Origin: Candidatus Pacearchaeota archaeon
Lineage (GTDB): Archaea; Nanobdellota; Nanobdellia; Pacearchaeales; GW2011-AR1
DNA: 64,000 bases
NCBI GenBank assembly: GCA_018303995.1
Contig: JAGVXB010000033.1
Span: 2,486 to 66,485, forward strand
Reading direction: 5' to 3'
Every line of letters begins with the position of its first letter. The stretch's first letter is position 1. The translations under genes and the position numbers were made by a program. Shown here piece after piece: positions 40,901 through 59,412 of this stretch. The notes under the pieces are model-generated. The model did no database searches. It was not told the DNA's origin and saw only the letters and a program-made list of their open reading frames with translations.

Positions 40901-41358
40901 GCGCTACGTATGGGCCCAGAAAAATAAGCTACCAAATAATCCTTGCCATCAAGAGTCTTTCCAACTTTTAAATCAGTATAACCTTCTATGGGAGAAGAAA
41001 CTACTCCAAGCGTAAAATAAGAAAAAGCAACACGTATCCCTGCATCAATAGCCTGAATCAAATCCTTAAATTTACAATATTTTTCGCGTGCAATGTCTTC
41101 CGCAATTCCCAAACAAACAGACATAGTAAGTTGCCCATATTGTTTCTCGAGCTCAAGAATCCTATTAATTATATGAACATCTTGCAACTGCGGATATACC
41201 ACAGATATTAAACCAACAGCTTTTTCAGCAAGAGATATCGCAATAGGCGTTTCAACCTTGGAAACAGGGTCAAGCCCCTTAGCACGAGCAACTTCAGCAA
41301 CGGCATACGCCTTTTTCACTTCATCATTAATATGCTGGAAGTATTGTTCAGAGTTCAT
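37909..41358 (-). CDS. DNA polymerase II (PolD) large subunit DP2
   Basis: 1149 aa, with Zn-finger clusters (CGLCG...CPIC...CRAC, CVGCN...CTKCGG) and conserved blocks such as GRPEKA and DGDEAA. The sequence is contiguous, so no intein is present. Confidence 0.9.
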   Translation of the reverse strand: MNSEQYFQHINDEVKKAYAVAEVARAKGLDPVSKVETPIAISLAEKAVGLISVVYPQLQDVHIINRILELEKQYGQLTMSVCLGIAEDIAREKYCKFKDLIQAIDAGIRVAFSYFTLGVVSSPIEGYTDLKVGKTLDGKDYLVAYFSGPIRSAGTTAGCVALMVIDYLREIFNYAKYDPTEEEVKRYVTENYDYHERVTNLQYLPSEEEITFLAKNLPIQISGEPTEQREVYNHKDLPRVETNQIRGGMCLVFSECLAQKAAKGFRLLKAAKANGFKSTGFDFLQEYVDVIQKKKIKGTGAGDGVPTYMKDIVAGRPIYSHPGRSGGFRFRYGRSRNSGFSATSVSPATMAVSRNFLAVGTQLKIEKPTKGCALSMVENIEGPIVKLKDGSVVKPITMEDAHKIKNSVEEIIYLGDLLFSLDDVINRNYALLKPGYVEEWWNLQLEKAGGSVLDSCNVSFEDALILSEKYSIPLYPAYIYYWTQINYSGFLGLVDWIAHGGISEDKRFVLPYSKSDRERFAVGKRALEIIGCPHAVHLESVILNSSDSKALLYNLGINSFENLDNSFDVLVKKVPADGDVLTVVNSLCSFAVKDKAGDFIGARMGRPEKAKLRKLTGSPHVLFPVSEEGGRLRSVQAAVEYGSVQSDFPNFFCGLCGDDSPYPRCPICLTLCKKRNYCRACEKYSDGPCSEHPENIQGFSTRRVDMKMQFDLAKKMIGARLDDLPVVIKGVRGTMSQDHSCEQLAKGLLRAKYNLHVNKDGTIRYDMTEMPLMYFKPKEIGTSVEKLIELGYEKDYLGAPLTNDNQILELFPHDIVLPACPETLDEKADDVFFNITRFVDDELEKLYKLDKYFNSVDKNSLIGCLFACIAPHICTATVGRLIGFSKTQAFFASPYMHAAMRRDADGDEAAVILLMDMLLNFSRKFLPSHRGGTQDAPLVLNVKINAGEVDDQILDTVCGKYPIELYELAEQRKHSSEVQIERIAHRLKSGKDPFTNLGFTHDVDNFNRAVLNSAYKTLPTMHDKVAEQMDLCSKIRAVDTSDVARLIIERHFIRDIRGNLRKFSQQVFRCVGCNEKFRRPPLAGKCTKCGGKIIFTISEGSIVKYMEAALNLARTYKVSPYLLENLEIVQGDIWSIFGREKEKQAKLVF

Positions 41359-41777
41359 TTAATCCCCTCAAAAATATTATAATCTGATTTAATTAAATCA
41401 ATAATAGGAGGCATTAAATTTTCAGGCAATTCCTCTTTGCTAAACCAATTCCAACACTCACACTTTTCAGGCTCCATTATTTTAGCTTCGCCTCCAATAT
41501 ACTCAGCATTCATAAAAAGAGTAATGTAATGTTTTCCTTCATTAGGGTAAGTATTATTTGCAACAAATATAGGACCAGTAACTTTTCCAACATCAAGTCC
41601 TGTCTCTTCTTTTATTTCTCTTCGAATAGCCTCTTCCAACCCTTCATTAAACTCAAGGTGCCCTCCTGCAAAAGCCCATACGCCCGGAGCATGTTTTCCT
41701 TTTCTTTTATGAAACAAAACTTTTCCATCTTTTTGAATAACGGCTGCGATACCAACCCTTACAATATTTTCATTCAT
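41355..41777 (-). CDS. NUDIX hydrolase
   Basis: The Nudix box is GGHLEFNEGLEEAIRREIKEETGL. It overlaps both PolD genes by 4 nt. Confidence 0.85.
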   Translation of the reverse strand: MNENIVRVGIAAVIQKDGKVLFHKRKGKHAPGVWAFAGGHLEFNEGLEEAIRREIKEETGLDVGKVTGPIFVANNTYPNEGKHYITLFMNAEYIGGEAKIMEPEKCECWNWFSKEELPENLMPPIIDLIKSDYNIFEGIK

Positions 41778-43375
41778 TTCACTCCAACCCCATCATCCCC
41801 AACTTCCTCTTCCTCACTCAAAGAACTAAAATCAAGAACCTTTAACTCATGAGTCTTTATATTAAATATCGGAACTTTACAAGGATCTGGAATATTCCCT
41901 ATTTTTTCTTCGAACTCTGTCTGAGCCTGCCAACAATTTCCAGTCAATATTAAAGTTCCATTATATCTCTCAATATCCAATCTATGAACTTCCCCAGTAC
42001 ACATTATATCTGGAACTTCAGAAATAACTAAAGGATCTCGATCAATATTGGGCACATAGACTATAGAAGCAGAAGCTCCATGACTCGGAGCAAAATGTCT
42101 CCTCTTCAACATATGCTTAACTGCTTTAGCAGGAGTTTTATGAGCCTTAATTAAACGTAACTCTTCAATATTATTAATAAATGTATGAATACTAGCCCCA
42201 TGATACATCTGAACCTTAAACTCTTTCCCTTTCTCAATTAACTTAACTAAACAAGGATTAGGAACTAAAACTAAATTAGGAACTTCATACATCGCCCCAG
42301 CATAAGTCTTATCCAATATTGGCTGAGGTTCAGGAACTCTAGAAGCATCGTGCTGTCCAGGGCACAAAAACATAGTTATCCTAGAAGGAACTCTCTTAAG
42401 ATAACTAGCAAGAGAATCATACTGCCCTTTCAATGTTTTAATCTCCAACAAACGTTCTTGTCCTGGAAAAACCCCTACACCATCGACAGTATCCCCAACG
42501 ATAAAAAGATATTTTATCTTATTAGCCAACTCATCTTCACTATTAAGCCATTCTATAAATCTATCAAATTCAGTCTTCAAAAACTTTAAACTCCCTACAT
42601 GAATATCTGATATAAAAGCCAATCCGCAGTCTTCATCAAACTTAGTCTTTTGTAAAACAAAAGAATCAGGAAAAAATATTTCGTGGCCCATTATCAATTC
42701 GTTGCTTCCAGCACAACGAACAGCAACAGTCTCATCAAGCTGCAACTCTTCAGCCATCTTAAAACAACTACTCCCTAACTTAAACACCACATTAGTCTTT
42801 CCAGTCATATCTTCAAAAACAACAATCAAATTTTTCTTTTTAGTGTACCTTTTCTCACTAACCATACCTATAATAGCAAATTTCTGTCGAGTATTAGAAA
42901 TCTTATTTATAGAAATCAAATTATCCAAATCCGAGCGTCTCAAAAGAATATTCTGAATCTCTTTATAACGAGCCCTAAAATGTCCTACAAAATCAGCAAC
43001 TTCTATTTTTTTTTCACTTGTAGTATTTGCATAATGAACTGTGTAATCTGGCCTAGACTTAATTTCTTCTTTCTTACTATTTTTTTTAATCTCTCCAACA
43101 CCTTCGTTAATATTAATCTGAATCCCTAATTGAATAAATATATTCAAAACTTTAGACTGAATCCCTTCATTTAGACCATCAACAACATTTTTTGAAAAAA
43201 CCATATTCTTCGTAAGAGAAGTTCGCGTAATCATCTTCTGTCCGGAAGCATACTCTAAGCTATCAAGCATCTTTCTTATTACTAAAGGATCATTTATACT
43301 ACTGAGAGCATCAAATATTTCTTTATCAAGCAACAATCCTTTCTCTTTTAATATCTGAAGAAGATCTAAATTCAT
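41774..43375 (-). CDS. DNA polymerase II (PolD) small subunit DP1 (exonuclease)
   Basis: The OB-like middle region is followed by calcineurin-type motifs FISDIHVGS, GDTVDGVG, PGQHD and GEVH. Confidence 0.88.
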   Translation of the reverse strand: MNLDLLQILKEKGLLLDKEIFDALSSINDPLVIRKMLDSLEYASGQKMITRTSLTKNMVFSKNVVDGLNEGIQSKVLNIFIQLGIQININEGVGEIKKNSKKEEIKSRPDYTVHYANTTSEKKIEVADFVGHFRARYKEIQNILLRRSDLDNLISINKISNTRQKFAIIGMVSEKRYTKKKNLIVVFEDMTGKTNVVFKLGSSCFKMAEELQLDETVAVRCAGSNELIMGHEIFFPDSFVLQKTKFDEDCGLAFISDIHVGSLKFLKTEFDRFIEWLNSEDELANKIKYLFIVGDTVDGVGVFPGQERLLEIKTLKGQYDSLASYLKRVPSRITMFLCPGQHDASRVPEPQPILDKTYAGAMYEVPNLVLVPNPCLVKLIEKGKEFKVQMYHGASIHTFINNIEELRLIKAHKTPAKAVKHMLKRRHFAPSHGASASIVYVPNIDRDPLVISEVPDIMCTGEVHRLDIERYNGTLILTGNCWQAQTEFEEKIGNIPDPCKVPIFNIKTHELKVLDFSSLSEEEEVGDDGVGVK

Positions 43376-43377
43376 TT

Positions 43378-44589
43378 CTATATGTTTAAAGCAGTTTCCA
43401 AAATCTCCTTCGCTTTTGGTTGCAAATTCTCAGGTACCATCAGCTTAATTTCTCTAGTTCTTCCCATTCTTCCCCTACTGACAACATCAACATTAATCAA
43501 TCCAAGCATATCAAACTCTGCAATTATATCTGAAACTCGACGTTGAGTCAAAACTTCAACCTTAGTCTTCTGACAAAATTCCTGATATTTATTATAAACC
43601 TGTCCTGTAAATATTTCATTCTTATCTTCTTTATTTGTCAAATTTAATATACTATAAAGAATCAACTGATGTTGCCTCGGCTCATTCTCTATAATATCTA
43701 ACATCTTATCTTTCTCAATCTTCTGATTTGCCTTATCAATAAATTCCATAGTCAATTTTTTAGAATGTTCTCTTTCTGCAAGCTCAGCAGCAACACGCAA
43801 CAAATCAAGAGCTCTCCTAGCATCTCCATGTTCACGAGCAGCAAAAGCAGCACATTTAGCAAAAACACCCTCATCTAAAACACCCTCAACAAAAGCACCC
43901 TCAGCACGTTCACGCAAAATATCTTGCAACTGCAACGCATTATAAGGCGGAAAAACAATTTCTTCCTCTCCAAGTGAACTTCTAACTCTTGGGTCAATAT
44001 TATCCATAAAAGTAAGATTATTGCTTATTCCAACCAAACTAATTTGAGCATTTTTCAACTCAGAGTTTAATCTAGTCAGATTATACAAAAAACTATCAGA
44101 TATCTTCTTAACTGCTTGATCTACTTCATCCATAACAATCAATATAAGTTGTTTCTTTCTTTCAATAATCTCAATAAACTTAGAATAAACCGCATCTGTC
44201 GGCAATCCAGTAGCAGGAACACTCTCTCCAAGAGAAGATATAATCTCCGCAAGAATTCTATACTCAGTATCTGCAACTTTCTTAAGTTTACAATTAATAT
44301 AAATAACTCTTAAATTATCTCCACCAGCGTCAGTAACTCTCTTTAAAATCTCTTTAGTAACATACTGTACAGAAAGAGTCTTGCCGCTCCCAGTTTTTCC
44401 ATAGAGGAATAAATTACTAACCCTCTCTCCTTTCAAAGCCGGAGCAAGTATAGAAGCAACGGCCTCTATTTGAGAATTTCTATGAGGAATTGTTTCAGGA
44501 GTATAATTTATCTGTAAAACTGATTTATTCTTGAATATACTACCCCCAGCATACGAATTAAATATATTATCTAAAGCCGAACCCATCAT
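43378..44589 (-). CDS. cdc6: Orc1/Cdc6 replication initiator
   Basis: Walker A is YGKTGSGKT, Walker B is VMDEVD, sensor 2 is GDARRALDLLR, and there is a C-terminal wH domain. Confidence 0.92.
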   Translation of the reverse strand: MMGSALDNIFNSYAGGSIFKNKSVLQINYTPETIPHRNSQIEAVASILAPALKGERVSNLFLYGKTGSGKTLSVQYVTKEILKRVTDAGGDNLRVIYINCKLKKVADTEYRILAEIISSLGESVPATGLPTDAVYSKFIEIIERKKQLILIVMDEVDQAVKKISDSFLYNLTRLNSELKNAQISLVGISNNLTFMDNIDPRVRSSLGEEEIVFPPYNALQLQDILRERAEGAFVEGVLDEGVFAKCAAFAAREHGDARRALDLLRVAAELAEREHSKKLTMEFIDKANQKIEKDKMLDIIENEPRQHQLILYSILNLTNKEDKNEIFTGQVYNKYQEFCQKTKVEVLTQRRVSDIIAEFDMLGLINVDVVSRGRMGRTREIKLMVPENLQPKAKEILETALNI

Positions 44590-44634
44590 AACCTCTTCAC
44601 ATCTCAGAAAATAGATTTATTTAAACATATCGCC

Positions 44635-44645
44635 ACTCCAACCCC
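44635..44645. promoter_or_regulatory. Left ORB-like half (ACTCCAACCCC), inverted relative to 45066-45073
   Basis: ACTCCAAC is the exact reverse complement of GTTGGAGT at 45066-45073. Both abut C/G runs. A TTTCCAATGCAAAAACC element is at 44728-44744. Confidence 0.35.
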
Positions 44646-45038
44646 TACTTCCTATGAAAAAATCAAGTCATTACGACGACATAAGTAAAATTAACTAATA
44701 AAACGAACCACCACACAGACACCATCATTTCCAATGCAAAAACCACATCTAACTAACAATATAATTAAAATAATGTAATAATAAATAAATGTAATAATAA
44801 TATATTCTATAATATATATAATACAACACCTATTTTATATTAATACATATCACAATATCTATAATATAACATATATTTTATAATATTATATTTATTAATA
44901 TATATAACACAATATACATCTTACATTAATATATATAACAATACATACAATATAATATATATAATATATAATATAAATATTTAAAAAAGAAAAATTAAAA
45001 AAACAAAAACAAAAATCCTTTTTAAACCTAACTCTCAT

Positions 45039-45073
45039 CTCCATACGAACTCAAGGGGACAGGGTGTTGGAGT
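45039..45073. promoter_or_regulatory. Right ORB-like element CTCCATACGAACTCAAGGGGACAGGGTGTTGGAGT
   Basis: The TCCA-N3-GAA-N6-GGGG layout resembles archaeal origin recognition boxes. Confidence 0.4.
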
Positions 45074-45179
45074 TCGTTTAATTAATTATTTATAAAAATT
45101 AAGTTGATAATATATGGACTGTATAGAACAAGTATCACTGAATAATAATCTTTAAATACTTAACATAATATCAGTTGAC

Positions 45180-45440
45180 ATGAATATCAATAAAAAACCA
45201 TTAAGAGAATTTATAGGAAAACCTGTAGTCACAAAAGAAGGTAAAAGATTAGGATTGGTAAAAGATATTACATTCGAAACACGCACCGGCGAACTCATTC
45301 AATTATTAATTAAAGATCAAACTCCTTATTTAAAGAGCTTAAATGTAGAAACAAATACATCTAAAGAATCAGTAATCCCTTATAACTCAATTATTGCAGT
45401 CGCAGACTTTATAGTTGTCTCAGAAGAAGATTTAATTTAA
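45180..45440 (+). CDS. PRC-barrel domain protein (86 aa)
   Basis: FIGKPVVTKEGKRLGLVKDITFETRTGELIQLLI...VIPYNSIIAVADFIVV. Confidence 0.7.
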   Translation: MNINKKPLREFIGKPVVTKEGKRLGLVKDITFETRTGELIQLLIKDQTPYLKSLNVETNTSKESVIPYNSIIAVADFIVVSEEDLI

Positions 45441-49718: not shown

Positions 49719-49988
49719 ATGCCTTCAATATCAAAAAAGAAACGCAATAAAATTTCAGAACAAATTCTTTCATATTTATATAACACTTCTCCAGAAGCTA
49801 GCTTCACTGTCAAAATAGCAGAAGAAATAATCAGAGATGAAGAGTTTACCAAATCCCTTTTAGAAGAACTAGAAAAAAGCAAACTAGTCACAAAAGTAAC
49901 AAAAGGACCAAATGGCCAAGATTATCAGAGATGGGAGCGTTGGCGCATGTCCAATGCAGCCTTCGAGGCTTATAAGAACCTGCGTTAA
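49719..49988 (+). CDS. Small winged-helix-like DNA-binding protein
   Basis: ISEQILSYLYNTSPEASFTVKIAEEIIRDEEFTKSLLEELEKSKLVTKV has a wHTH-like pattern. Confidence 0.45.
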   Translation: MPSISKKKRNKISEQILSYLYNTSPEASFTVKIAEEIIRDEEFTKSLLEELEKSKLVTKVTKGPNGQDYQRWERWRMSNAAFEAYKNLR

Positions 49989-50629
49989 TCTATTCTAATC
50001 CCTGCCCTCAAATCTTGATTTTGTTTCATCTTCCTTAAAATCTCATATGTTCTCCCAACTCCTTCATGCCCTGCTAAGTTAAGCTCTCCAAAAATTCTTT
50101 CTACTTTTCTCTGTCCATTCAAATTTTGCTCTTTAAATTGAGAGACATCTATTTTTTGAATATAATCTCTAGCGCTTCTAGAAATAACCATTGCGAGAAA
50201 AGGATCAATTGCCTGCATTAACAAAAATTCTCCTAATGCTGAGCCATTAACATAGCTATGAGGCCATATCTTCTTCTCAAATGTAGAAATCCAATGTCCC
50301 TTACAAGCAATCCTGGCGACATCATCAAGCCCTCTTTCATGCCCTTCCAAGCCCCCCAACACCCTCTTCAAAAGCCCATATATCATTCCAGCTCTTACTC
50401 TATATTCTCTTAAAGAATAAACCTCCAGTTCTTTTTTAATATCTTTTACTTTTTCAATATCAGTTGCTCTTCTCCTCAAAGATTCAGATCTCATCGAATA
50501 GAATTTTTCTTTTAATGGAGCAAGCACTCTAAAATAATCATTAACACTTTCTCTTTCATATTCAGGTCCCAAATCTCTCATCAAACAAATCTCTGCATCT
50601 TTATTTCCCGTGAGCTTAGGGATTTCCAT
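49985..50629 (-). CDS. Hypothetical protein
   Basis: 214 aa. No motif recognised. Its stop overlaps the convergent gene's stop within TTAA. Confidence 0.45.
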   Translation of the reverse strand: MEIPKLTGNKDAEICLMRDLGPEYERESVNDYFRVLAPLKEKFYSMRSESLRRRATDIEKVKDIKKELEVYSLREYRVRAGMIYGLLKRVLGGLEGHERGLDDVARIACKGHWISTFEKKIWPHSYVNGSALGEFLLMQAIDPFLAMVISRSARDYIQKIDVSQFKEQNLNGQRKVERIFGELNLAGHEGVGRTYEILRKMKQNQDLRAGIRID

Positions 50630-50689: not shown

Positions 50690-51349
50690 ATGTCCGACCC
50701 TCTAAAAGAAGCATTTACAAAAGTAAGGCAAGATATTGAATACCTATACCAAGAATTAGCCGACATCAAACAATCATTATACGAACTCAAAGAACAACAA
50801 TCAAACCAACCAACAAACCAACACATAACTCCAACACAAGAAACAAGCATTCCAACACAGTATTTGCCTCAATACGGCCCAATCTCTGGAAATAATGCCT
50901 TTTCCATAGGAAATAAAGGGGTTCCAACAAACCAACCAACAAACCAACCAACAAACCAACACCCCCTTATTTCCACTCCAACACAACCAATAAGTTCGTT
51001 TAATGACAAAATAAGCAACCTCCACAGAGTTTCAGAACTTCTAGGAACTCTCGACGATTTAAAAAAAGAAGTTCGTTTAAAATTCAAGAAACTCACAGAA
51101 CAAGAAATGGTTGTTTACAGCTCAATCTACAGCTTAGAAGATCAAGGATTCATGGTAGATTATTCTCTTTTAGCTCAAAAAACAAATCTCAGCGAAATTT
51201 CTATACGAGATTACATAAGAAAAATCATTCAAAAACAAATTCCTTTAATAAAATCAAAAGAATCGAATAAAAAAGTGCTTCTTTCAATCCCGCAGGATCT
51301 AAAAAGAATCGCTCCTCTCAACATAATCCTTCAATTAAGAAATATCTAG
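50690..51349 (+). CDS. Coiled-coil / low-complexity linker / C-terminal wHTH protein
   Basis: The N-terminal coiled coil is followed by PTNQ repeats. The C-terminus is LTEQEMVVYSSIYSLEDQGFMVDYSLLAQKTNLSEISIRDYIRKI. Confidence 0.5.
   Translation: MSDPLKEAFTKVRQDIEYLYQELADIKQSLYELKEQQSNQPTNQHITPTQETSIPTQYLPQYGPISGNNAFSIGNKGVPTNQPTNQPTNQHPLISTPTQPISSFNDKISNLHRVSELLGTLDDLKKEVRLKFKKLTEQEMVVYSSIYSLEDQGFMVDYSLLAQKTNLSEISIRDYIRKIIQKQIPLIKSKESNKKVLLSIPQDLKRIAPLNIILQLRNI
50924..50959. repeat. 12-nt tandem repeat x3 (CCAACAAACCAA) encoding (PTNQ)n
   Basis: Read directly from the sequence. A further unit is at 50810-50821. Confidence 0.85.
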
Positions 51350-51687
51350 CTCGCTACACCGAATACAAATAGTGTTCTCACTAATTCTCTTAAAAAGCCG
51401 TAAATGTCTCAAAATCAAGCTCTTTAAGGCTTAATCTCTCTTTTTACAACTCCCCTCTCTTTGACTCAATCAGACTATATGCTCTCCACACGGCATAAAG
51501 CCCTCACTTTTCACTCATTTTTACATCATTTTAGACATCTTTTTTTGAATCTGCATCTCTTAATCATTTTAATCCATTTTTCTCTCACTTTTTGTCTCAA
51601 ATTATCATATCTTTAGGTAATTTCTTATATTTTTTGTTTTCTTTAACTCTCACTTTTGCGTATTTCTCTAGTTTGTTACGAACTTCT

Positions 51688-52200
51688 TCACTCACAAACA
51701 CTCTTCTCATTCTTCTGTTTTATTGCATTTATTTGGCCTCTAATTGTGGCTCTCTCTTTACCCAAAAGACGAGCTATATCTTCATAACTCAGCTTTAATT
51801 CCGTATTCATAAGTGTAAAAACTATAAGTCTTTCATTACTACTTAATCCTCTCAAAATATCATGAAAATTGCCTGTTTGAACAGCTGTTTGAACAGGTTC
51901 TTGAACACCATAAACAGCAGGCTGTTCATCTAAAACGGCCGTTTTTTCAAACACCTGTTTATGTTCAACAGCTAAATTGGTTAAAGAAACTGCTTCTTTA
52001 ACTCCATCAATATCATCTTTTATCGACGCCAATTCTCTTTTTAGTTCAGAAATCAAATCAAACAGCTGTTTATCATTAGCATTTAGGTGTTTAACCCACT
52101 TTCCAACGCCTTCAAAGTCTTTTCGCACTTCAGAAAAACCCTTTCTCGTCTCGCTTTCAAGTTTATCTATTTTCTTTGAAGACTTAAACAACCCAAACAT
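51688..52200 (-). CDS. Coiled-coil / linker / C-terminal HTH protein
   Basis: It has the same architecture as 50690-51349. The C-terminus is LSSNERLIVFTLMNTELKLSYEDIARLLGKERATIRGQINAIKQK. Confidence 0.55.
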   Translation of the reverse strand: MFGLFKSSKKIDKLESETRKGFSEVRKDFEGVGKWVKHLNANDKQLFDLISELKRELASIKDDIDGVKEAVSLTNLAVEHKQVFEKTAVLDEQPAVYGVQEPVQTAVQTGNFHDILRGLSSNERLIVFTLMNTELKLSYEDIARLLGKERATIRGQINAIKQKNEKSVCE

Positions 52201-52306
52201 ATTAATTTATAGACGTAAAGAGTATATAAATCTTGCTGTTTTTTGTGCCCACTAGTAGCAAAAACAAACACCTTTAAACAACCAATAAACACCCCATATG
52301 TCAAAA

Positions 52307-52325
52307 CAAACAGCTGTTTAAACAC
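52307..52325. repeat. 19-nt perfect direct repeat CAAACAGCTGTTTAAACAC (copy 1)
   Basis: Identical to 52800-52818. Confidence 0.85.
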
Positions 52326-52494
52326 TTATCAACAGCTGTTCAAGTTTTTTAACATTTAAACACCCCTTTATAAAAACTCAAAGAAACATCAAAAAACCTC
52401 GCAAAAACAACCAAAACTCATCAAAAAAGGTAAAAATATTTAAACAGCTGTTTCCTTTAATGAACATCTTTTAAAAGAGATGAAAGGAGGTCAA

Positions 52495-52670
52495 ATGGCA
52501 AAAACAACAGCTTGGTTGGTAACGATTATAGGTCTTCTTTTATTGTTAAAGGTAATGGGAGTACGGTAATGGGAGTACTTGCAGTAATCACAGATTATAA
52601 TGATTGGTTAATCGCTATTGCAGTGCTCGTAATAGGCATCACAAAGCTTATGAGAAACTACAAGAAATAA
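52495..52670 (+). pseudogene. Small 2-TM membrane protein gene disrupted by a 14-nt tandem duplication
   Basis: A GGAGG lies 5 nt upstream of the ATG. As read, the gene gives 24 aa (MAKTTAWLVTIIGLLLLLKVMGVR*) and then 33 aa (MGVLAVITDYNDWLIAIAVLVIGITKLMRNYKK*). Removing one copy of GGTAATGGGAGTAC restores one 53-aa ORF. Confidence 0.55.
52551..52578. repeat. Perfect 14-nt tandem duplication GGTAATGGGAGTAC x2
   Basis: Read directly from the sequence. Confidence 0.9.
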
Positions 52671-52746
52671 ACCTTGTTTTTCTAATTTTATTTTTCTTTT
52701 TTACTTTATTTTTCACATATTTATCAAAAAACTTGCCTCTATAAGG

Positions 52747-52776
52747 GCGAGCGCCGAAGGCGCGAGTTGCGCCGAC
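52747..52776. repeat. GC-rich hairpin-containing element, copy A (GCGAGCGCCGAAGGCGCGAGTTGCGCCGAC)
   Basis: The hairpin is GCGCC-GAA-GGCGC. The element is similar to 54399-54427. Confidence 0.6.
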
Positions 52777-52799
52777 AAACACAAACGCCCTAAAAAATG

Positions 52800-52818
52800 C
52801 AAACAGCTGTTTAAACAC
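52800..52818. repeat. 19-nt perfect direct repeat CAAACAGCTGTTTAAACAC (copy 2)
   Basis: Identical to 52307-52325. Confidence 0.85.
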
Positions 52819-52925
52819 CCCCGCAGCGTCGATAAAACGCCCGTTTAAAACACCATCAAACACTCCAACAATCAATCAAACCAACAATCAAAAAAGTATA
52901 AAAACTCCTAAAACAAACAAGTAAT

Positions 52926-53234
52926 ATGAAACAAATCTTCTCAGAGTTCAAAGAATTTCTAAAAGAATACAAAATAATAGGGCTTGCTGTAGCTTTTATA
53001 ATTGGTGTAGCTGCAACAGCATTAGTCAAATCATTTGTCGACAACATAATAATGCCCATAATTACCCCATTCATTCCAGGAGGCCAATGGCAAACTGCAA
53101 CATGGACAATAGGCCCAATAGTTCTAAGCTGGGGTGCATTCTTAGGATCAGCAATTAATTTCATAATTATCGCATTGGTAGTCTTCGCAATAGCAAAAGC
53201 AATTTTAAGAGAAGAAAAAGTATCTAAAAAGTAA
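52926..53234 (+). CDS. mscL: Large-conductance mechanosensitive channel MscL
   Basis: FKEFLKEYKIIGLAVAFIIGVAATALVKSFVDNIIMPII plus a second TM helix. 102 aa. Confidence 0.85.
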   Translation: MKQIFSEFKEFLKEYKIIGLAVAFIIGVAATALVKSFVDNIIMPIITPFIPGGQWQTATWTIGPIVLSWGAFLGSAINFIIIALVVFAIAKAILREEKVSKK

Positions 53235-53274
53235 ATGCATAACTACTTAAACTCCAAGCACCTAGTAATAAAGT

Positions 53275-53439
53275 ATGGTTTCATTAGTCTTAACATTATC
53301 TGCAATCATGGCTATAATCGTAGGCCTCTTAGTTTTAATCTGGCCAAAGTTCCTCAGGGTAGCGGTAGGCCTTTACCTTCTAATCTTTGGAATCCTTCAA
53401 CTATTAAACATTAACCTAGACCTTTCACCATTGGGTTAA
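53275..53439 (+). CDS. Small 2-TM protein (DUF3096-like, 54 aa), not in the ORF track
   Basis: MVSLVLTLSAIMAIIVGLLVLIWPKFLRVAVGLYLLIFGILQLLNINLDLSPLG. Confidence 0.5.
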   Translation: MVSLVLTLSAIMAIIVGLLVLIWPKFLRVAVGLYLLIFGILQLLNINLDLSPLG

Positions 53440-53479
53440 AATCAACAAATCTTTCTAGCAAAAGCTAAATCTTTCAGCA
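53440..53479. repeat. Degenerate copies of the 3'-flank element (AATCAACAAATCTTTCTAGCA, GCTAAATCTTTCAGCA)
   Basis: Similar to the 27-mers at 54299 and 55339. It starts directly after a stop codon. Confidence 0.45.
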
Positions 53480-53563
53480 AGAATCAGACCAATTTTTAGT
53501 CGATTTATAAACCTTTATCAAGCTTTTTATAGTCGTGAAACCTATCATTTAAGGAGGTAAATC

Positions 53564-53713
53564 ATGGCAAAAAAGGATCAAGCAATGAAGGCCCCAGTTG
53601 AAGCAGTAAAACCAACAATAAATGTTGCACCTGCTACAACTCAAATGTCTTCAGCACCTAAAACAACTGTTCAGGAAAACCCTGCTTCAGTCGTTGCAAA
53701 CAAGAAGAAGTGA
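53564..53713 (+). CDS. Candidate 49-aa protein, not in the ORF track
   Basis: AAGGAGGT lies 5 nt upstream of the ATG. The sequence is MAKKDQAMKAPVEAVKPTINVAPATTQMSSAPKTTVQENPASVVANKKK. Confidence 0.4.
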   Translation: MAKKDQAMKAPVEAVKPTINVAPATTQMSSAPKTTVQENPASVVANKKK

Positions 53714-53793: not shown

Positions 53794-54027
53794 ATGGAAC
53801 AAAAACAACAAATTACTCTCGAAAGTCTCTATCATAGAATCATCTTGCTTGAAAAAGCTCTAAAATCTAAAGGGATAACTATAGAAAAAGAAGAATCCCA
53901 AATGGATGATGAAGGAGAATTAACTGATGAATTTAAAGAGAGACTAGAAAAAGCCAGAAAAACCCCTATTTCAGAATACGTTAGTCATGAAGAAGTAAAA
54001 AGAAGAATTCTTGCAAAGAAAAAATGA
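53794..54027 (+). CDS. Putative antitoxin of the RelE/ParE-type module
   Basis: 77 aa, acidic. It overlaps the toxin gene by 4 nt. Confidence 0.5.
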   Translation: MEQKQQITLESLYHRIILLEKALKSKGITIEKEESQMDDEGELTDEFKERLEKARKTPISEYVSHEEVKRRILAKKK

Positions 54028-54290
54028 GCTATCAATTGAAGTGGTCAAATTTAGCTTTAGAATCATTAGAAAAATTACCTTTCGAAATTGCAGAAAGAAT
54101 CCTTAAAAAACTCGATCAAGTAAAAGAAAATCCAAAACATTTTATTGAGGGCTTAGTTGGATTAGATTTCAAGAAAGTAAGGGTAGGAGATTACAGGGTT
54201 TTGGTTGATCTTTTAGAAAATGAAAAAATAATTGCTATTAGGGATTTAGGACATAGAAAAAACATCTATAAAAAATACAAAACGGATTAA
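54024..54290 (+). CDS. RelE/ParE-family toxin
   Basis: ESLEKLPFEIAERILKKLDQVKENP...KVRVGDYRVLVDL...IIAIRDLGHRKNIYK. Confidence 0.75.
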   Translation: MSYQLKWSNLALESLEKLPFEIAERILKKLDQVKENPKHFIEGLVGLDFKKVRVGDYRVLVDLLENEKIIAIRDLGHRKNIYKKYKTD

Positions 54291-54298
54291 ATCAAACT

Positions 54299-54325
54299 TT
54301 CAATTAACGCTTAAATCTTCCAGCA
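54299..54325. repeat. 27-nt direct repeat TTCAATTAACGCTTAAATCTTCCAGCA (copy 1)
   Basis: 26 of 27 nt are identical to 55339-55365. It starts 8 nt after the relE stop. Confidence 0.85.
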
Positions 54326-54398
54326 TAACCATAAAATTCGTTTAATCCTTCAGAAATAAGGTTGCATTCCAATACCAAAAACACTTGCTTCAGTTAGT

Positions 54399-54427
54399 GT
54401 GAGGCCGAAGGCCGAACGTGCGCCGAC
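54399..54427. repeat. GC-rich hairpin-containing element, copy B (GTGAGGCCGAAGGCCGAACGTGCGCCGAC)
   Basis: The hairpin is GGCC-GAA-GGCC. It shares the TGCGCCGAC tail with copy A. Confidence 0.6.
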
Positions 54428-54468
54428 CATCTCGAAAGTCTTAAAAACCTATTAAAATCGTCAAATTA

Positions 54469-54876
54469 ATGTCAAAACCTAGAAGACTTGGATTAGATAG
54501 TTATTTTGAAGAATGTGGTTCTTCTATACATCCTTGCGTGAATTTTCAAAGCAACAGACTTAGAACTCCAAGAGGGATAGCTTTTTTACTTATTGAGGGT
54601 TTAGCAGATTATTTAGGAGGAGGAAGTTATTACCTTTCTGAATCTTCCAGTAAATGGGATAACGTTCATGCAGAAATTTATGAAGACGATCCTAAAAGAA
54701 GAGGGCAAGCAGTTCTCGAGTTTAGAGGTCAAATAGATTTTGATAAAAATATTGTTAATCATACAATGATAGTGGGTCAAAATAATCCAAAGGGCATCAA
54801 CTCTAAAGATCTTGCCTATCTTTTAACCAAATCTCTAAAAGGTAAAAAATTATTTCCAAAAATCTCTTCAGAATAA
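54469..54876 (+). CDS. Hypothetical protein
   Basis: 135-aa ORF. No motif recognised. Confidence 0.45.
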   Translation: MSKPRRLGLDSYFEECGSSIHPCVNFQSNRLRTPRGIAFLLIEGLADYLGGGSYYLSESSSKWDNVHAEIYEDDPKRRGQAVLEFRGQIDFDKNIVNHTMIVGQNNPKGINSKDLAYLLTKSLKGKKLFPKISSE

Positions 54877-55002
54877 GCATTTTTATATTAAATCACCAAA
54901 CGTTCGTACAACCTTTATTAAGAGAACTCGGTGGTGCTTTAAAGCGAACTTATTCTCCAAAATCACAACAATCTTTAAATAATTGACAAAATCTTCATCT
55001 TT

Positions 55003-55335
55003 ATGGTATTAGATGATAAGGGTCACGGCGGCTATCACGAAATAAGAGGCAGTCCTATTTTACCAGGCATGCTTGATGCACCTACGGAGCCAACTACAGA
55101 TTACTTTATAGGGAGATTTGCAAGAGATAATAAATATCACTTACTAGGACAACGCCCCCACGGAAGATCTGATTTATTTTCAGCGGCATCAGAATCTCGT
55201 GGAGATCATGGTCTTGTAGCTTTGCCTCTAGGAAAAGAGAAATTAAGAGACTTGGTACAAGGAGATGTTTTAAGAGTAGATCCTCATACCTCTGGGGTAA
55301 ATTCCTATAAAATTGTTTATTTGGGTCATAATTAA
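55003..55335 (+). CDS. Hypothetical protein
   Basis: 110-aa ORF, Gly/His/Arg-rich. No motif recognised. Confidence 0.45.
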   Translation: MVLDDKGHGGYHEIRGSPILPGMLDAPTEPTTDYFIGRFARDNKYHLLGQRPHGRSDLFSAASESRGDHGLVALPLGKEKLRDLVQGDVLRVDPHTSGVNSYKIVYLGHN

Positions 55336-55338
55336 ACG

Positions 55339-55365
55339 TTCAATCAACGCTTAAATCTTCCAGCA
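55339..55365. repeat. 27-nt direct repeat TTCAATCAACGCTTAAATCTTCCAGCA (copy 2)
   Basis: It starts 3 nt after the stop of 55003-55335. Confidence 0.85.
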
Positions 55366-55453
55366 CGAGAGAGAAGGGCAAACGAGTTCGGTTTATTCTT
55401 GCTTGAACATTCAGGCGTAAGCTGAAACTTTCAGCATTGAGGATAAGTTCGTT

Positions 55454-56323
55454 TTATTTTGTGCTTTCTATTCTTTCCCAAATTTCTTCACGCCTTTTCT
55501 TTTTTACATTTATATCCCAGTAAATTACACTCCATAAATACAACCTTGCTATGAAAAGTTCAATTAACCATACAAAATTATTTAGATTTTTCACATATTT
55601 GAAAAGTCTCCAGAAATTAATGCTTTCCTGATTAAATGAACGTATTTTTACATTCAATAATTTTGCAATTTGGTTATATCCCCCAACACTTCTTTTTTTC
55701 TGTTTTATCCAATCTTTAAAATTTTTAGGATATGTGATATAAGCAATTGCTTTTGGTTCATAAGCAATTCTATATCCTTTTTTATAAATTAAATAAGAAA
55801 TATATCCATCCTCAGATAAAAGTTCTTCAGGTAATTTAGGCATTAATTTCTTTCTTATTGCAAATAAATACCCTGAGCAGAATAGGAATTTATTTTTTAT
55901 TGAATTTTCTTGTCTTTGTTCATGAGCAACATCTGCCAAAACGTGCCCCCAGAATCCAAATCTATTACTCTTTGAATCAATTGAAATAGGCCTTCCACTC
56001 ACTGCCCCAATTTTATCATTTTTAAAATGATATATCAGTTCTCTTACACTTTTATCGTTGATAGAAATATCTCCGTCTGTCCAAACTAATATTTCTCCTC
56101 TTGCTTTTTTTACTACGAGATTCATTGCAGCAGGTTTTCCTTTTCCAAAATCTTTAACAATCTTGACTTTTTTTGAGGCTTTTTTAGCAACATCTAATGT
56201 TTCATTATCTGGAGCTACAACAATCAACTCATCTTCTTTAGACAACTGAGGTAAAATTGCAATTACAGCCTTTCCTATAGTCTTAGGTTCTTTAAATGAA
56301 GTAATTATTACTGTGGTTTTCAT
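55454..56323 (-). CDS. Family 2 glycosyltransferase
   Basis: TVIITSFKEP...VVAPDNET...LVWTDGDISI is a GT-A DxD-type layout. Confidence 0.78.
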   Translation of the reverse strand: MKTTVIITSFKEPKTIGKAVIAILPQLSKEDELIVVAPDNETLDVAKKASKKVKIVKDFGKGKPAAMNLVVKKARGEILVWTDGDISINDKSVRELIYHFKNDKIGAVSGRPISIDSKSNRFGFWGHVLADVAHEQRQENSIKNKFLFCSGYLFAIRKKLMPKLPEELLSEDGYISYLIYKKGYRIAYEPKAIAYITYPKNFKDWIKQKKRSVGGYNQIAKLLNVKIRSFNQESINFWRLFKYVKNLNNFVWLIELFIARLYLWSVIYWDINVKKKRREEIWERIESTK

Positions 56324-56433
56324 GAAGATAAATATAAATGCTCCTTTTTATTACTATAGTATTCTAAAAACAGTTACCCCTTTTAAGAAAGGACAATGCA
56401 AATATTTAAATAGTCTATATTTTAATAAAACTC

Positions 56434-56817
56434 ATGGGTAAAAAATCAGATCTTTTAGCAGACGGAATGGCGATAGGAATGGGATTAGTTGCTTCTACTC
56501 TCTTAACTGCAGTTGTATATATGGGCACATTTGGGGCATATTTTAATCGCAAAATTTTAGAAGGCAACGTAGAAAAAGAATTGAGAGACGGCCCTAATTA
56601 CACTCTTTTAATAAAGGAATCTGAAACTGGAAAATCATACGGCATAAATATAAGAGATTATTCAGAGAAACCACTTAGTGCTCTAGAAGCTCTTATTGAA
56701 CCAAATGATCAAGTCAGGATTACCTTTTGCAATGATTTCTTTGACCAAGCTTATTTAGGTAAAGATGGAGTAGGTACTGCTCCAACTAGAGCTGTAACTG
56801 TTGTGAAAAAGCAATAA
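56434..56817 (+). CDS. N-terminally anchored hypothetical protein
   Basis: 127 aa with a hydrophobic N-terminal segment. Confidence 0.4.
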   Translation: MGKKSDLLADGMAIGMGLVASTLLTAVVYMGTFGAYFNRKILEGNVEKELRDGPNYTLLIKESETGKSYGINIRDYSEKPLSALEALIEPNDQVRITFCNDFFDQAYLGKDGVGTAPTRAVTVVKKQ

Positions 56818-56824
56818 ATCTCCT

Positions 56825-57991
56825 CTAAATCTTATTATTCAACAAATTATCTAAAGGATTTGAGATTTTTCTCTCTAATATTAATTTTTGAATTTTATTA
56901 ATGCATTCCTCAGGAGTCTTTTTTATTTCAGACTCAAAAAATCTGAGCACCACCCAACCCTTATTCTTTAGATATTTATCTTTAAATTTGTCTGTTTGAA
57001 TCTTTTTCTTTTGCGTATTATTCAAATTGTTTGAATCATATATCTTAGGATTAGCATGCCAATAATCTCCATCACATTCTATAGCAATTTTATGAGTGGG
57101 GATAACAAAATCACATACAAATTTATCCTCAATTGAATATTGGGCAACAAACTTAATTTCCTTATTAATCATTAAACTAGCCATTATTCTCTCTATTTCA
57201 GTATCTTTAAATGGCATTTCACGATTTACTAATCTTCTTATTATTGATTTTCTACTAGCTATAGACATCTCATTTTTTCTAATTTTCGCTTTATCAATTC
57301 CATAAACTTCTTCCCATTTTTTACCATACATGGAATGTTCTTTTCCTTTAAGACTTGCTATATTCTCAAAATTTGGTCTTTTTTTGATATCCAATTTATT
57401 CATCAATTTTATAATAATCAATCGATCAATTCTTAATTTTTTAGCTATCTTTTCTTGTGTTAACTTTTCTTCCCAATATAGGTAAGTTATAATTTCTTTT
57501 AGTTGTTTTCCATATTTTATTTCTATTTCTCTAAATTTATTTTCTCTTTTTCTTCTATAAGCCTCTTTAACTTTCTCTGCCATCAAATTTAGTCTCTCAT
57601 CTTTTTCTTTAGTCAGTCCTTTTTGCCAAGGCTCATATTTGGTAGCTCTAATTTTATTTGCTTCAGATCTTTCGCGTCTACGAATGTTAAATTTATTAAA
57701 GTAATGTTCTATAGTCGTCTTACCAACTTTTAGAATATTTGATATTTCTCTCATAGATTTGTTTTCTTTAAAATAAAAATTTTCTAATAGTTCTTTATTT
57801 ATTTCTTTATCATTTTTCTTTCTAGATATGCAATAAAAATCATATTTTTTCTTAAGTTTTAATTTTAATGCCATATATGCAACCCCTCCATTGCCTCGAT
57901 TTAGAGATTTTGCGATTTCGTTGTTTAGCTTATTAGAATAATTGTCTTTAATAAAGTTAATCTCTTGTTGCGTCCATTTTCTCATCAACAA
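56825..57991 (-). CDS. PD-(D/E)xK (Vsr/DUF559-like) endonuclease-domain protein with repeated N-terminal HTH modules
   Basis: The C-terminus is FVCDFVIPTHKIAIECDGDYWHANP...GWVVLRFFESEI. The N-terminal half has at least two similar HTH modules (SMREISNILKVGKTTIEHYFNKFNIRRR; TQEKIAKKLRIDRLIIIKLMNKLDIKKR) and a NUMOD3-like GKEHSMYGKKW. Confidence 0.6.
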   Translation of the reverse strand: MLMRKWTQQEINFIKDNYSNKLNNEIAKSLNRGNGGVAYMALKLKLKKKYDFYCISRKKNDKEINKELLENFYFKENKSMREISNILKVGKTTIEHYFNKFNIRRRERSEANKIRATKYEPWQKGLTKEKDERLNLMAEKVKEAYRRKRENKFREIEIKYGKQLKEIITYLYWEEKLTQEKIAKKLRIDRLIIIKLMNKLDIKKRPNFENIASLKGKEHSMYGKKWEEVYGIDKAKIRKNEMSIASRKSIIRRLVNREMPFKDTEIERIMASLMINKEIKFVAQYSIEDKFVCDFVIPTHKIAIECDGDYWHANPKIYDSNNLNNTQKKKIQTDKFKDKYLKNKGWVVLRFFESEIKKTPEECINKIQKLILERKISNPLDNLLNNKI

Positions 57992-58018
57992 CTATTAGGA
58001 CACCTTATATATAAATTT

Positions 58019-58834
58019 TTACTTAAGATTATCCAAAGGATTAGAAATCTTCTTCAATTCTTCGCCTGAGATGTGAGTATACAATTCTGTCGTCGCAATC
58101 GATGCATGCCCAAGCAAAGTCTGAATTTTTCTTAGGTCAACACCTGCTTCAAGTAAGTGCGTCGCAAAACTATGCCTGAGGGTATGTGGTGTTACTTTCT
58201 TCTGTATATCTGCTCTTTGTCTTAGACTTTTCACTATTTTTTGAATATTTCTAGTAGTTAAAGGCTCATCTTGAGAGAACAAATATTTTGAGTTTTCTTT
58301 TCTTTTCAAATATTCTTTTAATTCGCCGGCAAGATTTGAAGAGAGCATAAACATTCTGTCCTTTGAACCTTTTCCTTCTCTCACCCACCCAGTATTTTCA
58401 GAAAAATTGATATCAGAAGGCTTAATATTAACAAGCTCAGAAACTCTCAAACCAGAAGAATAAAGCAAAGATAAAATTAATCTAGACTTTCTAGTTTCAG
58501 CAGAATTAATTAATCTGGAAACTTCTTCCTTTGTTAAAACTTCTGGAAGTTTCCTGTCTTTCTTAGGAACTCTTATTTCCCCAACTTCCTTCTTTAATAT
58601 TTCTGTAAAAAAGAATTTTAACGAAGCTGCAGCAAGCATTACAGTATTTTTAGATTTAGTATCAAACATAGAGGCCAAGTATGTGCGCACATCTTCCTGA
58701 TTGACTTCATCAACCGATTTATTTGTTGCTTTTAAAAATTTATCCACAAAAAAAAAGTAATTTCTCACAGTCAATGGAGAAAACCCTCTTAACTTCAATT
58801 CAGTCTGTAATTTGCCTAAAGCGTCAATCACCAT
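58019..58834 (-). CDS. xerA: Tyrosine recombinase XerA-like
   Basis: The N-terminal SAM-like domain (LRGFSPLTVRNY) is followed by the catalytic HTLRHSFATHLLEAGVDLRKIQTLLGHASIATTELYTH. Confidence 0.88.
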   Translation of the reverse strand: MVIDALGKLQTELKLRGFSPLTVRNYFFFVDKFLKATNKSVDEVNQEDVRTYLASMFDTKSKNTVMLAAASLKFFFTEILKKEVGEIRVPKKDRKLPEVLTKEEVSRLINSAETRKSRLILSLLYSSGLRVSELVNIKPSDINFSENTGWVREGKGSKDRMFMLSSNLAGELKEYLKRKENSKYLFSQDEPLTTRNIQKIVKSLRQRADIQKKVTPHTLRHSFATHLLEAGVDLRKIQTLLGHASIATTELYTHISGEELKKISNPLDNLK

Positions 58835-58881
58835 CTTAAAAGTAAAACAGTACTTCTCTTTAAAAGGTTTTGTAACTTAAA

Positions 58882-59412
58882 TTATTTAAGGTTAAATCTA
58901 TGAAAAACCTTAGGGTTATGTTGCCCTTCAGAAGTATCCCAAACAACCAGCTGAATCTCTTTAACAATAAATTTTCCAAATATTTTATTAATATTTATCG
59001 CCTCATCATATGGTTTTGATAAAGCAACGAGAGACGCATGAGGAATATAATTTTCATCTTCAAATTTTTTATTAATGCTAGGCAATCCAATTGTACAAAG
59101 TTTTTTATGTAGTTTTATTAATTCAGGAGAATCTATTTTGGCATAAAAAACGTTCGGAAATTTGCCAACCCCTTTAATAACAACTTCAAAATTTCTTTGG
59201 TTAACTATTATTTTAGAGATTTTATTAATAATTAATTCGATTTCTTGTTCAGAAGGCAAGGTATCTCTAAGCTCAATAGCTTTAACGGTGCAATGGAAAA
59301 ATCCTTCTTTTCTCCAATCATAAACAAACTTTTCAGGTATCTCAATTTTCTTAACGACTTCAACAATATTCTTAGGAACGAAGAAGTTAATCGTAATTGA
59401 GTATTTGGGCAT
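58882..59412 (-). CDS. 2H phosphoesterase superfamily protein (LigT-like paralog)
   Basis: The two H-x-[TS] motifs are FFHCTVKA and IPHASLVA. Confidence 0.5.
   Translation of the reverse strand: MPKYSITINFFVPKNIVEVVKKIEIPEKFVYDWRKEGFFHCTVKAIELRDTLPSEQEIELIINKISKIIVNQRNFEVVIKGVGKFPNVFYAKIDSPELIKLHKKLCTIGLPSINKKFEDENYIPHASLVALSKPYDEAININKIFGKFIVKEIQLVVWDTSEGQHNPKVFHRFNLK

Follow-up and report, generated by a model that had tools for sequence, protein, structure and literature searches.

A dense array of palindromes and half-sites at a winged-helix gene of DPANN archaea, conserved in about 80 species, is probably a cooperative operator array

Introduction

Why should one 10-base-pair (bp) palindrome, AACAGCTGTT, occur six times between positions 51880 and 52811 of a 64,000-nucleotide (nt) stretch of archaeal DNA, and nowhere else in it? 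The stretch, hereafter the window, belongs to contig JAGVXB010000033.1 of a Candidatus Pacearchaeota archaeon (assembly GCA_018303995.1), and the palindromes lie in and beside a gene for a coiled-coil and winged-helix protein, hereafter the regulator. An initial annotation, made from the letters alone, had proposed an operator array, iterons or a partition site bound by a dimeric helix-turn-helix (HTH) protein, and perhaps a site from which a plasmid or virus is replicated or segregated. The explanation that we favour, and consider probable, is a cooperative operator array of about 1 kb for a locally encoded winged-helix protein, controlling its own gene and divergent membrane-protein genes. 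On the best reading, the six palindromes are the strongest sites of this composite array.

A composite array conserved across species

Exact search of the window places the palindrome at 51880, 52061, 52309, 52331, 52443 and 52802, with zero other copies across the 64 kb and none in the 10 kb beyond it, and the copies at 52061, 52309, 52443 and 52802 extend to AAACAGCTGTTT. All six positions, the four extended copies and the uniqueness within 64 kb had been given correctly by the initial annotation. Its claim that the clustering is non-random is likewise borne out by 100 dinucleotide shuffles of the 64-kb sequence: six copies were observed versus 0.03 expected, and none of the 100 shuffles gave six. 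With one mismatch permitted, the cluster and its surroundings yield two more copies, at 51950 and 53662. The exact 10-mers merely stand out from a larger array, as half-sites ([GC]TGTTT or AAACA[GC]) reach 21.9 per kb in 51870–52830 versus 1.8 per kb over the remaining window, a 12-fold difference.

The same arrangement recurs in other genomes. Among 245 species of the GTDB taxonomy matched, 80 were kept, and one locus per species was fetched with 10 kb on either side (regulator protein identity 52–84%); position counts refer to the 79 loci with a located gene start, namely 78 other species plus the window (approx. 1.25 Mb in total). The loci of the 80 species hold 231 copies of the 10-mer in 1.19 Mb versus approximately 1.2 expected, and 216 of 228 copies in the 79 loci fall between −1200 and +640 from the regulator ATG, with peaks at −150, +125, +235, +255 to +270 and +305. 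Thus, the motif is no dispersed repeat (all six copies in the window belong to the cluster), and it accompanies the homologous regulators of other species at fixed positions, two points on which the initial annotation had asked for a check.

The array is built from the half-site GG[GC]TGTTTAA, and a pair of these in inverted orientation forms TTAAACAGCTGTTTAA. This half-site dominates the 320 nt upstream of the gene, where GGGTGTTT is found in 68 of 79 loci and where same-orientation [GC]TGTTT half-sites number 6.8 per locus on average (79 loci). Their spacing is 10–12 or 20–22 nt, which therefore places them on one face of the helix. Half-site density is approximately 100 times background and limited to −300 to +320, with a dense array at −180 to −80 from the ATG. 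A second palindrome, TTATCGNCGATAA, accompanies the first motif and recurs at about −180 and about +170, which points to a second binding specificity. Seven loci (L001, L002, L003, L008, L014, L057 and L061) carry, 500–1100 nt upstream, a second module in which both motifs are paired (TTATCGACG plus palindrome). In the window, the non-coding parts of the array are the following:

52236–52363, unstranded: upstream array, with half-sites at 52236, 52266, 52287, 52320 and 52358 and palindromes at 52309–52318 and 52331–52340
52801–52863, unstranded: second module before mscL, with a palindrome at 52802–52811, half-sites at 52813, 52848 and 52858, and CGTCGATAA at 52827–52835

A metagenome scan for two copies within 30 nt, which made no use of the regulator gene, returned 53 low-GC matches, 33 of which carry the regulator gene, the others being mostly unrelated organisms or tandem repeats. 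A scan of viral contigs for the 16-bp palindrome gave five single matches, none with a regulator gene; two of the five hold further scattered 10-mers, and the result otherwise fits chance.

Some conserved palindromes were also seen outside the main array, 4–6 kb upstream in L022, L030 and L037 and approximately 1.1–1.4 kb upstream in L068, L073 and L078. One such copy lies within the shared sequence AACAGCTGTTTGAATAGGTGTTTGCACAAGGATAT and another inside an open reading frame (ORF) of approximately 110 amino acids (aa), where it reads AKQLFG; these extra copies are possibly further targets or paralogous embedded sites. In a search for structured RNA, Rfam (gathering thresholds over the window, E-value thresholds over 51300–53600) returned only a match to mir-31, spurious because of the inverted half-sites, and a tRNA scan of the window found none.

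Sites within the coding sequence

Part of the array lies inside the coding sequence (CDS) of the regulator, which is read on the minus strand. The sites concerned are the following:

51880–51889, unstranded: palindrome AACAGCTGTT, coding for VQTAVQT, within a longer symmetric stretch at 51872–51897
51912–51960, unstranded: three degenerate sites, AAACAGCAGGCTGTTC (EQPAVY), AAAACGGCCGTTTT (KTAVL) and AAACACCTGTTT (KQVF)
52020–52031, unstranded: half of the second palindrome, TTATCGACG, which reads CGTCGATAA on the gene strand and codes for ASIK
52061–52070, unstranded: palindrome AACAGCTGTT, coding for DKQLFD
52085–52095, plus strand: half-site AGGTGTTTAAC, which reads TTAAACACCT on the gene strand and codes for KHL

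The two intragenic copies do encode DKQLFD and QTAVQT, and the near-palindromes that the initial annotation had noticed are present at 51912–51927, 51933–51946 and 51949–51960. The latter are degenerate in the window, and at the homologous positions of other loci the exact 10-mer itself occurs, at +235 in 27 of 79 loci and at +255 to +270 in 35 of 79.

Codon choice at these sites departs strongly from background. At the KQL sites, glutamine is CAG in 77 of 77 cases (background 0.36) and leucine is CTG in 76 of 77 (background 0.064), and KQL[FS] is written as AAACAGCTGTTT in 67 of 77 sites versus 0.012 expected; QTAV is written as CAAACAGCTGTT in 65 of 88 sites versus 0.047 expected. The same holds for the KHL site, a block visible in the alignment, with histidine as CAC in 70 of 74 sites (background 0.30), and for the second-palindrome site at 52020–52031, which reads TTATCGTCGATAA in other species and where serine is TCG in 52 of 57 and 47 of 54 sites (background 0.07). 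Codon by codon, the hot spots of synonymous constraint are K37-H38-L39 (AAACACCT), KQLF, L57-S58-S59 (TTATCGTCG, the second palindrome), NKQVF, KQTAV and VQTAVQTG, those at N80-F84 and K92-V96 matching the sites at 51912–51960, and the codon columns between hot spots are unconstrained. Since rare synonymous codons are fixed at the sites, selection acts on the DNA; judged by these codon columns, it keeps the intragenic sites beyond what the protein imposes. Three of the hot spots sit in a disordered linker of the protein, so the ‘invariant’ residues of this linker are likely a shadow of the DNA sites, and its conservation probably reflects these sites rather than the peptide.

Two other sources of synonymous constraint were considered and rejected. 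An overlapping gene would need an open frame, and all five alternative frames hold stops in 79 of 79 loci; as for a conserved mRNA structure, RNAalifold gave −6 kcal/mol with zero covariation.

The regulator and its gene

The gene that carries these sites is not whole in the window:

51597–52200, minus strand: gene for the coiled-coil and winged-helix regulator, 213 aa in relatives; the open frame here stops at 51688 (170 aa)

The initial annotation had given 51688–52200 as the CDS, and the 170-aa product is identical to NCBI J4423_05300. This product is in fact truncated. Nearly all of the 1054 homologues found measure 205–215 aa, and a 99.7%-identical assembly (L206, ENA ANAN16 scaffold_245) encodes 213 aa. 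Relative to that assembly, 38 nt are missing near 51706, so that the frame is shifted, the open frame ends at 51688 and the protein is stripped of its wing, last helix and basic tail. The deletion may truly have inactivated the gene, or else reflect mixed strains or faulty assembly. Six substitutions are packed into the 55 nt that precede it (window 51640–51760).

For the intact protein, the AlphaFold model comprises a long single helix (residues 5–79), a disordered linker (79–104) and a confident winged helix (106–199; order H-H-H-strand-strand-H), the predicted local distance difference test score being approximately 80–92 over residues 110–190 (about 90). None of the Pfam and NCBIfam models scored above cut-off. 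By structure, Foldseek matched the winged helix to AbfR2 (Lrs14-like), MepR, MarR, CadC and SmtB at E = 1e-4 to 1e-3, the top match being AbfR2 (6cmv, E = 1.6e-4), for which the sequence match is weak (E = 0.066). From this predicted fold, we are confident in assigning the regulator to the Lrs14/MarR-like winged-helix proteins, and the long N-terminal helix probably forms a coiled coil for oligomerization. The recognition helix of these folds has its aligned counterpart in the regulator, where T152, R154, G155, Q156, I157, N158, I160 and K163 are invariant across the set, and this invariance is matched by that of the half-site over the same set.

Strong synonymous constraint was also seen away from both motifs, in the 3′ part of the gene (window approx. 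51600–51700; residues 190–198 in relatives), where Val196 is GTG in 76 of 76 sites (background 0.15) and Leu190 is preferentially CTA. Elsewhere in the gene, AGT is favoured at Ser138 and Ser164 and GAG at Glu149.

Promoters and divergent genes

The position of the array relative to promoter elements is equally regular. In 77 of 79 loci, a TATA-like box precedes the regulator ATG, with a median position of −30, a distance from which it follows that the regulator mRNA is near-leaderless. Between this box and the ATG, a half-site core occurs in 36 of 79 loci and a full palindrome in three. The other side of the spacer is occupied by genes in divergent orientation, and in the window the elements concerned are the following:

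52223–52230, minus strand: TATA box of the regulator, approximately 30 nt before the ATG
52437–52452, plus strand: divergent TATA box TATTTAAA, its 3′ end overlapped by the palindrome at 52443–52452
52495–52670, plus strand: gene for a small membrane protein (53 aa in the unbroken form), interrupted here by a tandem duplication of 14 nt at 52551–52578
52926–53234, plus strand: mscL (Pfam MscL, E = 9e-22), with a TATA box at 52896–52903

The overlap of site and promoter is not peculiar to the window: the fusion of half-site and TATA box (CTGTTTAAATAGTTTTAC on the regulator strand) is also present in the close relatives L001–L009, and a half-site is fused to TTTAAA in 20 loci. The majority of half-sites lie between the two divergent TATA boxes, and this spacer would be untranscribed if these boxes mark its only promoters.

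In all loci, small membrane-protein genes are present on the divergent side; they belong to DUF5654 (40 loci), DUF3096 (35), a 54-aa family that includes 52495–52670 of the window (22), DUF378 (20) and MscL (8). A half-site lies within 150 nt upstream of 29% of the divergent small membrane-protein genes versus 4% of control ORFs. The sixth palindrome, at 52802, is found beyond the small membrane-protein gene and upstream of mscL. Accordingly, the DNA upstream of the regulator, described by the initial annotation as free of ORFs, does hold a gene, albeit a broken one. The duplication that breaks it consists of two copies of GGTAATGGGAGTAC and does not occur in L206.

A GC-rich hairpin was observed on the minus strand at 52741–52790 (−28 kcal/mol, z = −2.9), followed by a run of six U. 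It is set in AT-rich intergenic DNA that extends from the small membrane-protein gene to mscL, with no known gene on that strand.

A cooperative operator array as the most probable explanation

The observations above establish the sites with their conservation and phasing, the selection on the DNA, the placement of the sites at the promoters and the protein fold; which protein binds, with what sign it regulates and to what signal it responds is what we infer from them. The binder is most likely the locus-encoded 213-aa protein, with its N-terminal helix, 25-residue flexible linker and Lrs14/MarR-type winged helix; a coiled coil joined to a flexible linker would put both inverted and direct repeats within reach. 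The second palindrome is probably bound by one of two other HTH proteins encoded nearby. Cooperative binding would assemble a large nucleoprotein complex spanning the region upstream of the regulator TATA box, the transcription start, the first 320 nt of the CDS and the divergent TATA box, and the outcome would be autoregulation together with co-regulation of the divergent MscL, DUF378, DUF3096 and DUF5654 genes. Of the initial proposal, the non-random array of protein-binding sites tied to the HTH gene at 51688–52200 is supported, and its iteron and partition variants are considered unlikely.

Several observations fit this explanation poorly. The upstream array stands 50–150 nt upstream of the TATA box, a place typical of activators, which blurs the sign of regulation. 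At least 15 half-sites are spread over approximately 600 bp, several of them intragenic, and ordinary autoregulation needs fewer. There are almost no other targets in the 64-kb window or in the 10-kb flanks of the other loci, and so strong a conservation is odd for so small a regulon. In this genome, moreover, the regulator is frameshifted while every site stays intact. Lastly, the locus encodes three conserved HTH proteins, which leaves more than one candidate binder.

Neighbouring genes and chromosomal context

The window is a fragment of a Pacearchaeota-type DPANN chromosome and neither plasmid nor virus, the array lying on a block that is conserved as far as Lhr, Orc1/Cdc6 and PolD; the initial suggestion of a plasmid or viral centre is thereby set aside. 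The genes concerned are the following:

37909–41358: PolD large subunit
41774–43375: PolD small subunit
43378–44589: Orc1/Cdc6
49719–49988, plus strand: small winged-helix protein of 89 aa, present in 72 of 80 loci, with weak winged-helix matches
50690–51349, plus strand: coiled-coil and HTH protein of 219 aa, convergent with the regulator, present in 77 of 80 loci, with weak HTH_36 and DnaD_N matches

Between orc1 and the array lie a Lrs-type helicase (Lhr) and a PdeM-like phosphoesterase. Thirty-nine loci, the window and those of 38 other species, extend as far as orc1, and in these the order is without exception regulator, 219-aa HTH protein, 89-aa winged-helix protein, Lhr, PdeM, a 145-aa gene, an AT-rich region, Orc1 and PolD, and the distance from array to orc1 is 6.3–9.4 kb in all of them.

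Both the 219-aa and the 89-aa protein are candidates for binding one or other motif. The former (50690–51349) had been named by the initial annotation alongside the product of 51688–52200; the array is tied to the latter gene, and the two proteins have their architecture in common without detectable homology (BLASTP E = 0.1). Choosing a binder by relative conservation was not decisive either, the median identities of the three HTH proteins being 59, 44 and 56%. In other species, the 89-aa gene directly precedes the 219-aa gene, both being read from one strand; in the window, a 214-aa ORF with no family match lies between them on the opposite strand (49985–50629), and none of the 80 other loci, in which the two genes adjoin, contains a corresponding ORF. 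The linker of the 219-aa protein (window 50790–50960) contains the low-complexity repeat NQPTNQPTNQ, to which several spurious antisense ORFs in this interval are owing.

Upstream of orc1, at 44590–45180, the window holds a conventional candidate chromosomal origin (oriC), with 250 bp of 9% GC and 43-nt periodic AT-rich repeats, approximately 7 kb from the array and followed by a PRC-barrel gene (45180–45440). The AT-rich element is flanked by an inverted repeat resembling an origin recognition box (ORB), AAACGAACCACCAC / GTGTTGGAGTTCGTTT with a G-run, which differs in sequence from the array motif. An ORB identity of the array itself was considered, as the 9-mer CACTCCAAC is common to both regions, and rejected, this sharing being explained by the C/A-rich composition of the strand. 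Neither GG[GC]TGTTTA nor AACAGCTGTT occurs in the 39 orc1-upstream regions (36 kb).

Nucleotide skew changes near the array. Independently of gene strand, the GC3 skew is −0.45 to −0.60 and the AT3 skew +0.26 to +0.40 over 0–52.3 kb; at approximately 52300–53500 they fall to about −0.2 and about 0, respectively (about three-fold), and stay low for at least 20 kb (window, and 1–10000 of L207). In 53 species, the two sides of the array differ in the same direction (GC3 0.285 versus 0.160, paired p approx. 1e-7; AT3 p approx. 8e-11). A switch of sign at the array was found neither in the window nor in the 53 species. This step may mark a replication boundary or a weaker equilibration of a variable region, which alone could cause it. 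The interval 53794–59000, which separates the array from a ribosomal-protein/RNA-polymerase operon, looks variable, with an antitoxin/ParE toxin pair (53794–54290), a glycosyltransferase, a DUF559 protein and a tyrosine integrase (58019–58834).

Alternative explanations

The proximity to orc1 invites readings in which the array serves the chromosome rather than its neighbouring genes. It could be a chromosome-organizing or centromere-like site close to the origin, where the protein would nucleate and either bridge the origin region or deliver it to machinery for segregation or condensation, with autoregulation as a by-product. A partition site is expected to consist of clustered repeats beside the gene of its binder and near the origin, and this is what was found: a single dense array per 64 kb, 6–9 kb from orc1 and at the edge of the block conserved in all loci that reach so far, with sites in and beside the gene of the presumed binder, a half-site period of 10–11 bp around the promoter and more sites than simple repression requires, not to mention a long coiled coil and a fold common to cooperative Lrs14-type nucleoid proteins (PMC11841832). 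However, among the ORFs of 100 aa or more in the window and in the 80 loci with their 10-kb flanks, none has a deviant Walker A motif (K[GS]GxGK[ST] in the first 60 residues, as in ParA, SegA and MinD), a scan that did not specifically search for ParM; the sites are placed exactly on promoter elements and recur before small membrane-protein genes, as expected for gene regulation, and the constant distance to orc1 may be mere synteny in reduced genomes. We consider this reading unlikely, and slightly more so a bolder version of it, in which the array is a chromosomal landmark: the protein would polymerize on phased half-sites 6–9 kb from orc1, forming a centromere or loading site or else an Orc1-independent, partially efficient origin, the skew step would be a boundary of replication direction, and the linker peptides KQVF and QTAVQT would owe their sequence to the DNA sites rather than to protein function. 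Such a role is given some room by the number of sites, by their reach into the CDS, by the scarcity of targets elsewhere and by the constant position close to orc1; if it were true, the array would be the first chromosome-organizing or replication element known from this lineage. Less probable again is a second replication origin of the iteron type, at which a winged-helix initiator would open the DNA at direct repeats and repress its own gene at inverted ones. Direct and inverted repeats of one half-site do lie by a winged-helix gene with a phasing of 10–11 or 21–22 bp, and the skew step (GC3 from −0.55 to about −0.2, AT3 from +0.3 to about 0) falls within approximately 1 kb of the array with an origin-like polarity, recurs as a skew difference in 53 species and has no equivalent at the AT-rich region adjacent to orc1. 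Yet an AT-rich unwinding element is missing (GC is 0.30 in 52201–52494 versus 0.33 in the window and 0.09 in the orc1-adjacent 44750–45000), half of the array is coding sequence, no helicase or primase gene is adjacent, and the sign of the skew never flips; across species its change is gradual over approximately 3 kb, and it is found where conserved synteny stops and where a variable region lies (toxin–antitoxin pair, integrase).

Two further readings dispense with a chromosomal role, and we give them very little credence. At the RNA level, the self-complementary 12-mers of the CDS could pair in the mRNA and control its translation or stability: any two copies of AAACAGCUGUUU could form a 12-bp duplex, and four to five copies fall in the first 320 nt of a near-leaderless mRNA. 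Most units, however, are non-palindromic half-sites in the spacer between the divergent TATA boxes, where transcription is not expected, and the weak RNAalifold consensus already mentioned, itself without covariation, does not pair the palindromes together, so that this reading appears highly improbable. Even further from credible is a cluster of restriction-modification or methylation targets acting as a methylation-sensitive switch. CAGCTG is a classical type II target (PvuII), and six of the nine CAGCTG in the window are inside the cluster. The initial annotation had asked whether CAGCTG is such a target in this lineage. When counted, the hexamer proved neither depleted nor enriched, be it outside the array or in the window overall (9 versus 7.1 expected, with 24 of 100 shuffles reaching 9), and the idea found no support: the AA/TT flanks are conserved too, most units (GGTGTTTAA) do not contain CAGCTG, and several species freely swap it for CAGGTG. 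The operator array thus remains the explanation that we prefer.

Significance

The kind of element proposed, an autoregulatory operator array, is known; what is unusual is the combination of two motifs, helically phased half-sites, intragenic sites under synonymous selection and conservation over approximately 80 species. Literature searches for the 10-mer returned only eukaryotic primers and papers on basic helix-loop-helix E-boxes, and those on DPANN or Pacearchaeota regulators returned no description of the protein family or the motif. For DPANN archaea, which are uncultivated and about whose gene regulation next to nothing is known, the locus supplies a defined fold, two motifs, two promoters and a small candidate regulon. 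It also offers a clear natural case of overlapping codes, with operators inside the regulator's own gene kept by rare synonymous codons in approximately 80 species. Such embedded operators would explain the apparent protein-level conservation of a disordered linker, and call for caution when protein conservation is equated with function.

Comparison with known systems

The closest parallel is offered by the Lrs14/AbfR proteins of the Sulfolobales, which provide the best structural match for the C-terminal domain of the regulator and with which it shares a winged helix followed by a long helix and would share coiled-coil dimerization and cooperative binding. According to works listed in PMC11841832 (Napoli 1999; Bell & Jackson 2000), Lrs14 binds its own promoter and autoregulates, and the same source describes Lrs14 proteins as largely non-specific binders. 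The DPANN protein differs in having an extra 75-residue N-terminal helix and a 25-residue disordered linker, in lacking significant sequence similarity to them, and in its presumed sites, which are highly sequence-specific and reach into its own CDS.

Partition systems show a comparable layout. The parS site of Bacillus subtilis lies inside spo0J, and the ParR/parC system of plasmid R1 consists of repeats around a promoter; here as there, repeats with a period of approximately 11 bp flank a promoter and serve, or in the present case would serve, autoregulation, with a palindrome in the gene of the binder (here a presumed one) and a location near the origin. Unlike these systems, the array has no gene for a partner ATPase or actin-like protein nearby (within the deviant Walker A scan, ParM not having been specifically searched), and the regulator is a winged helix rather than a ribbon-helix-helix or ParB fold. 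The Rep systems of iteron plasmids (pPS10, F, R6K) likewise use one half-site as direct and inverted repeats by the gene of a winged-helix protein, whereas the array is chromosomal, has no AT-rich unwinding element, sends its repeats into the CDS and lies 7 kb from a conventional ORB-flanked AT-rich region by orc1. In overall design, a dimerization domain, a flexible linker and a DNA-binding domain recall AraC, in which case the linker would allow direct or inverted half-sites, variable spacing and looping between distant sites; the folds are unrelated, and the analogy concerns architecture only.

For the intragenic sites, the models are the auxiliary operators located within coding sequences, lac O2 in lacZ and gal OI in galE. 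In both situations, operators embedded in a CDS cooperate, or in the present case would cooperate, with promoter-proximal ones, and coding and binding constraints overlap. The array goes further in having four to seven such sites, of two motif types, in the regulator's own gene; these sites are under synonymous-site selection in approximately 80 species, and they coincide with invariant residues of a disordered linker.

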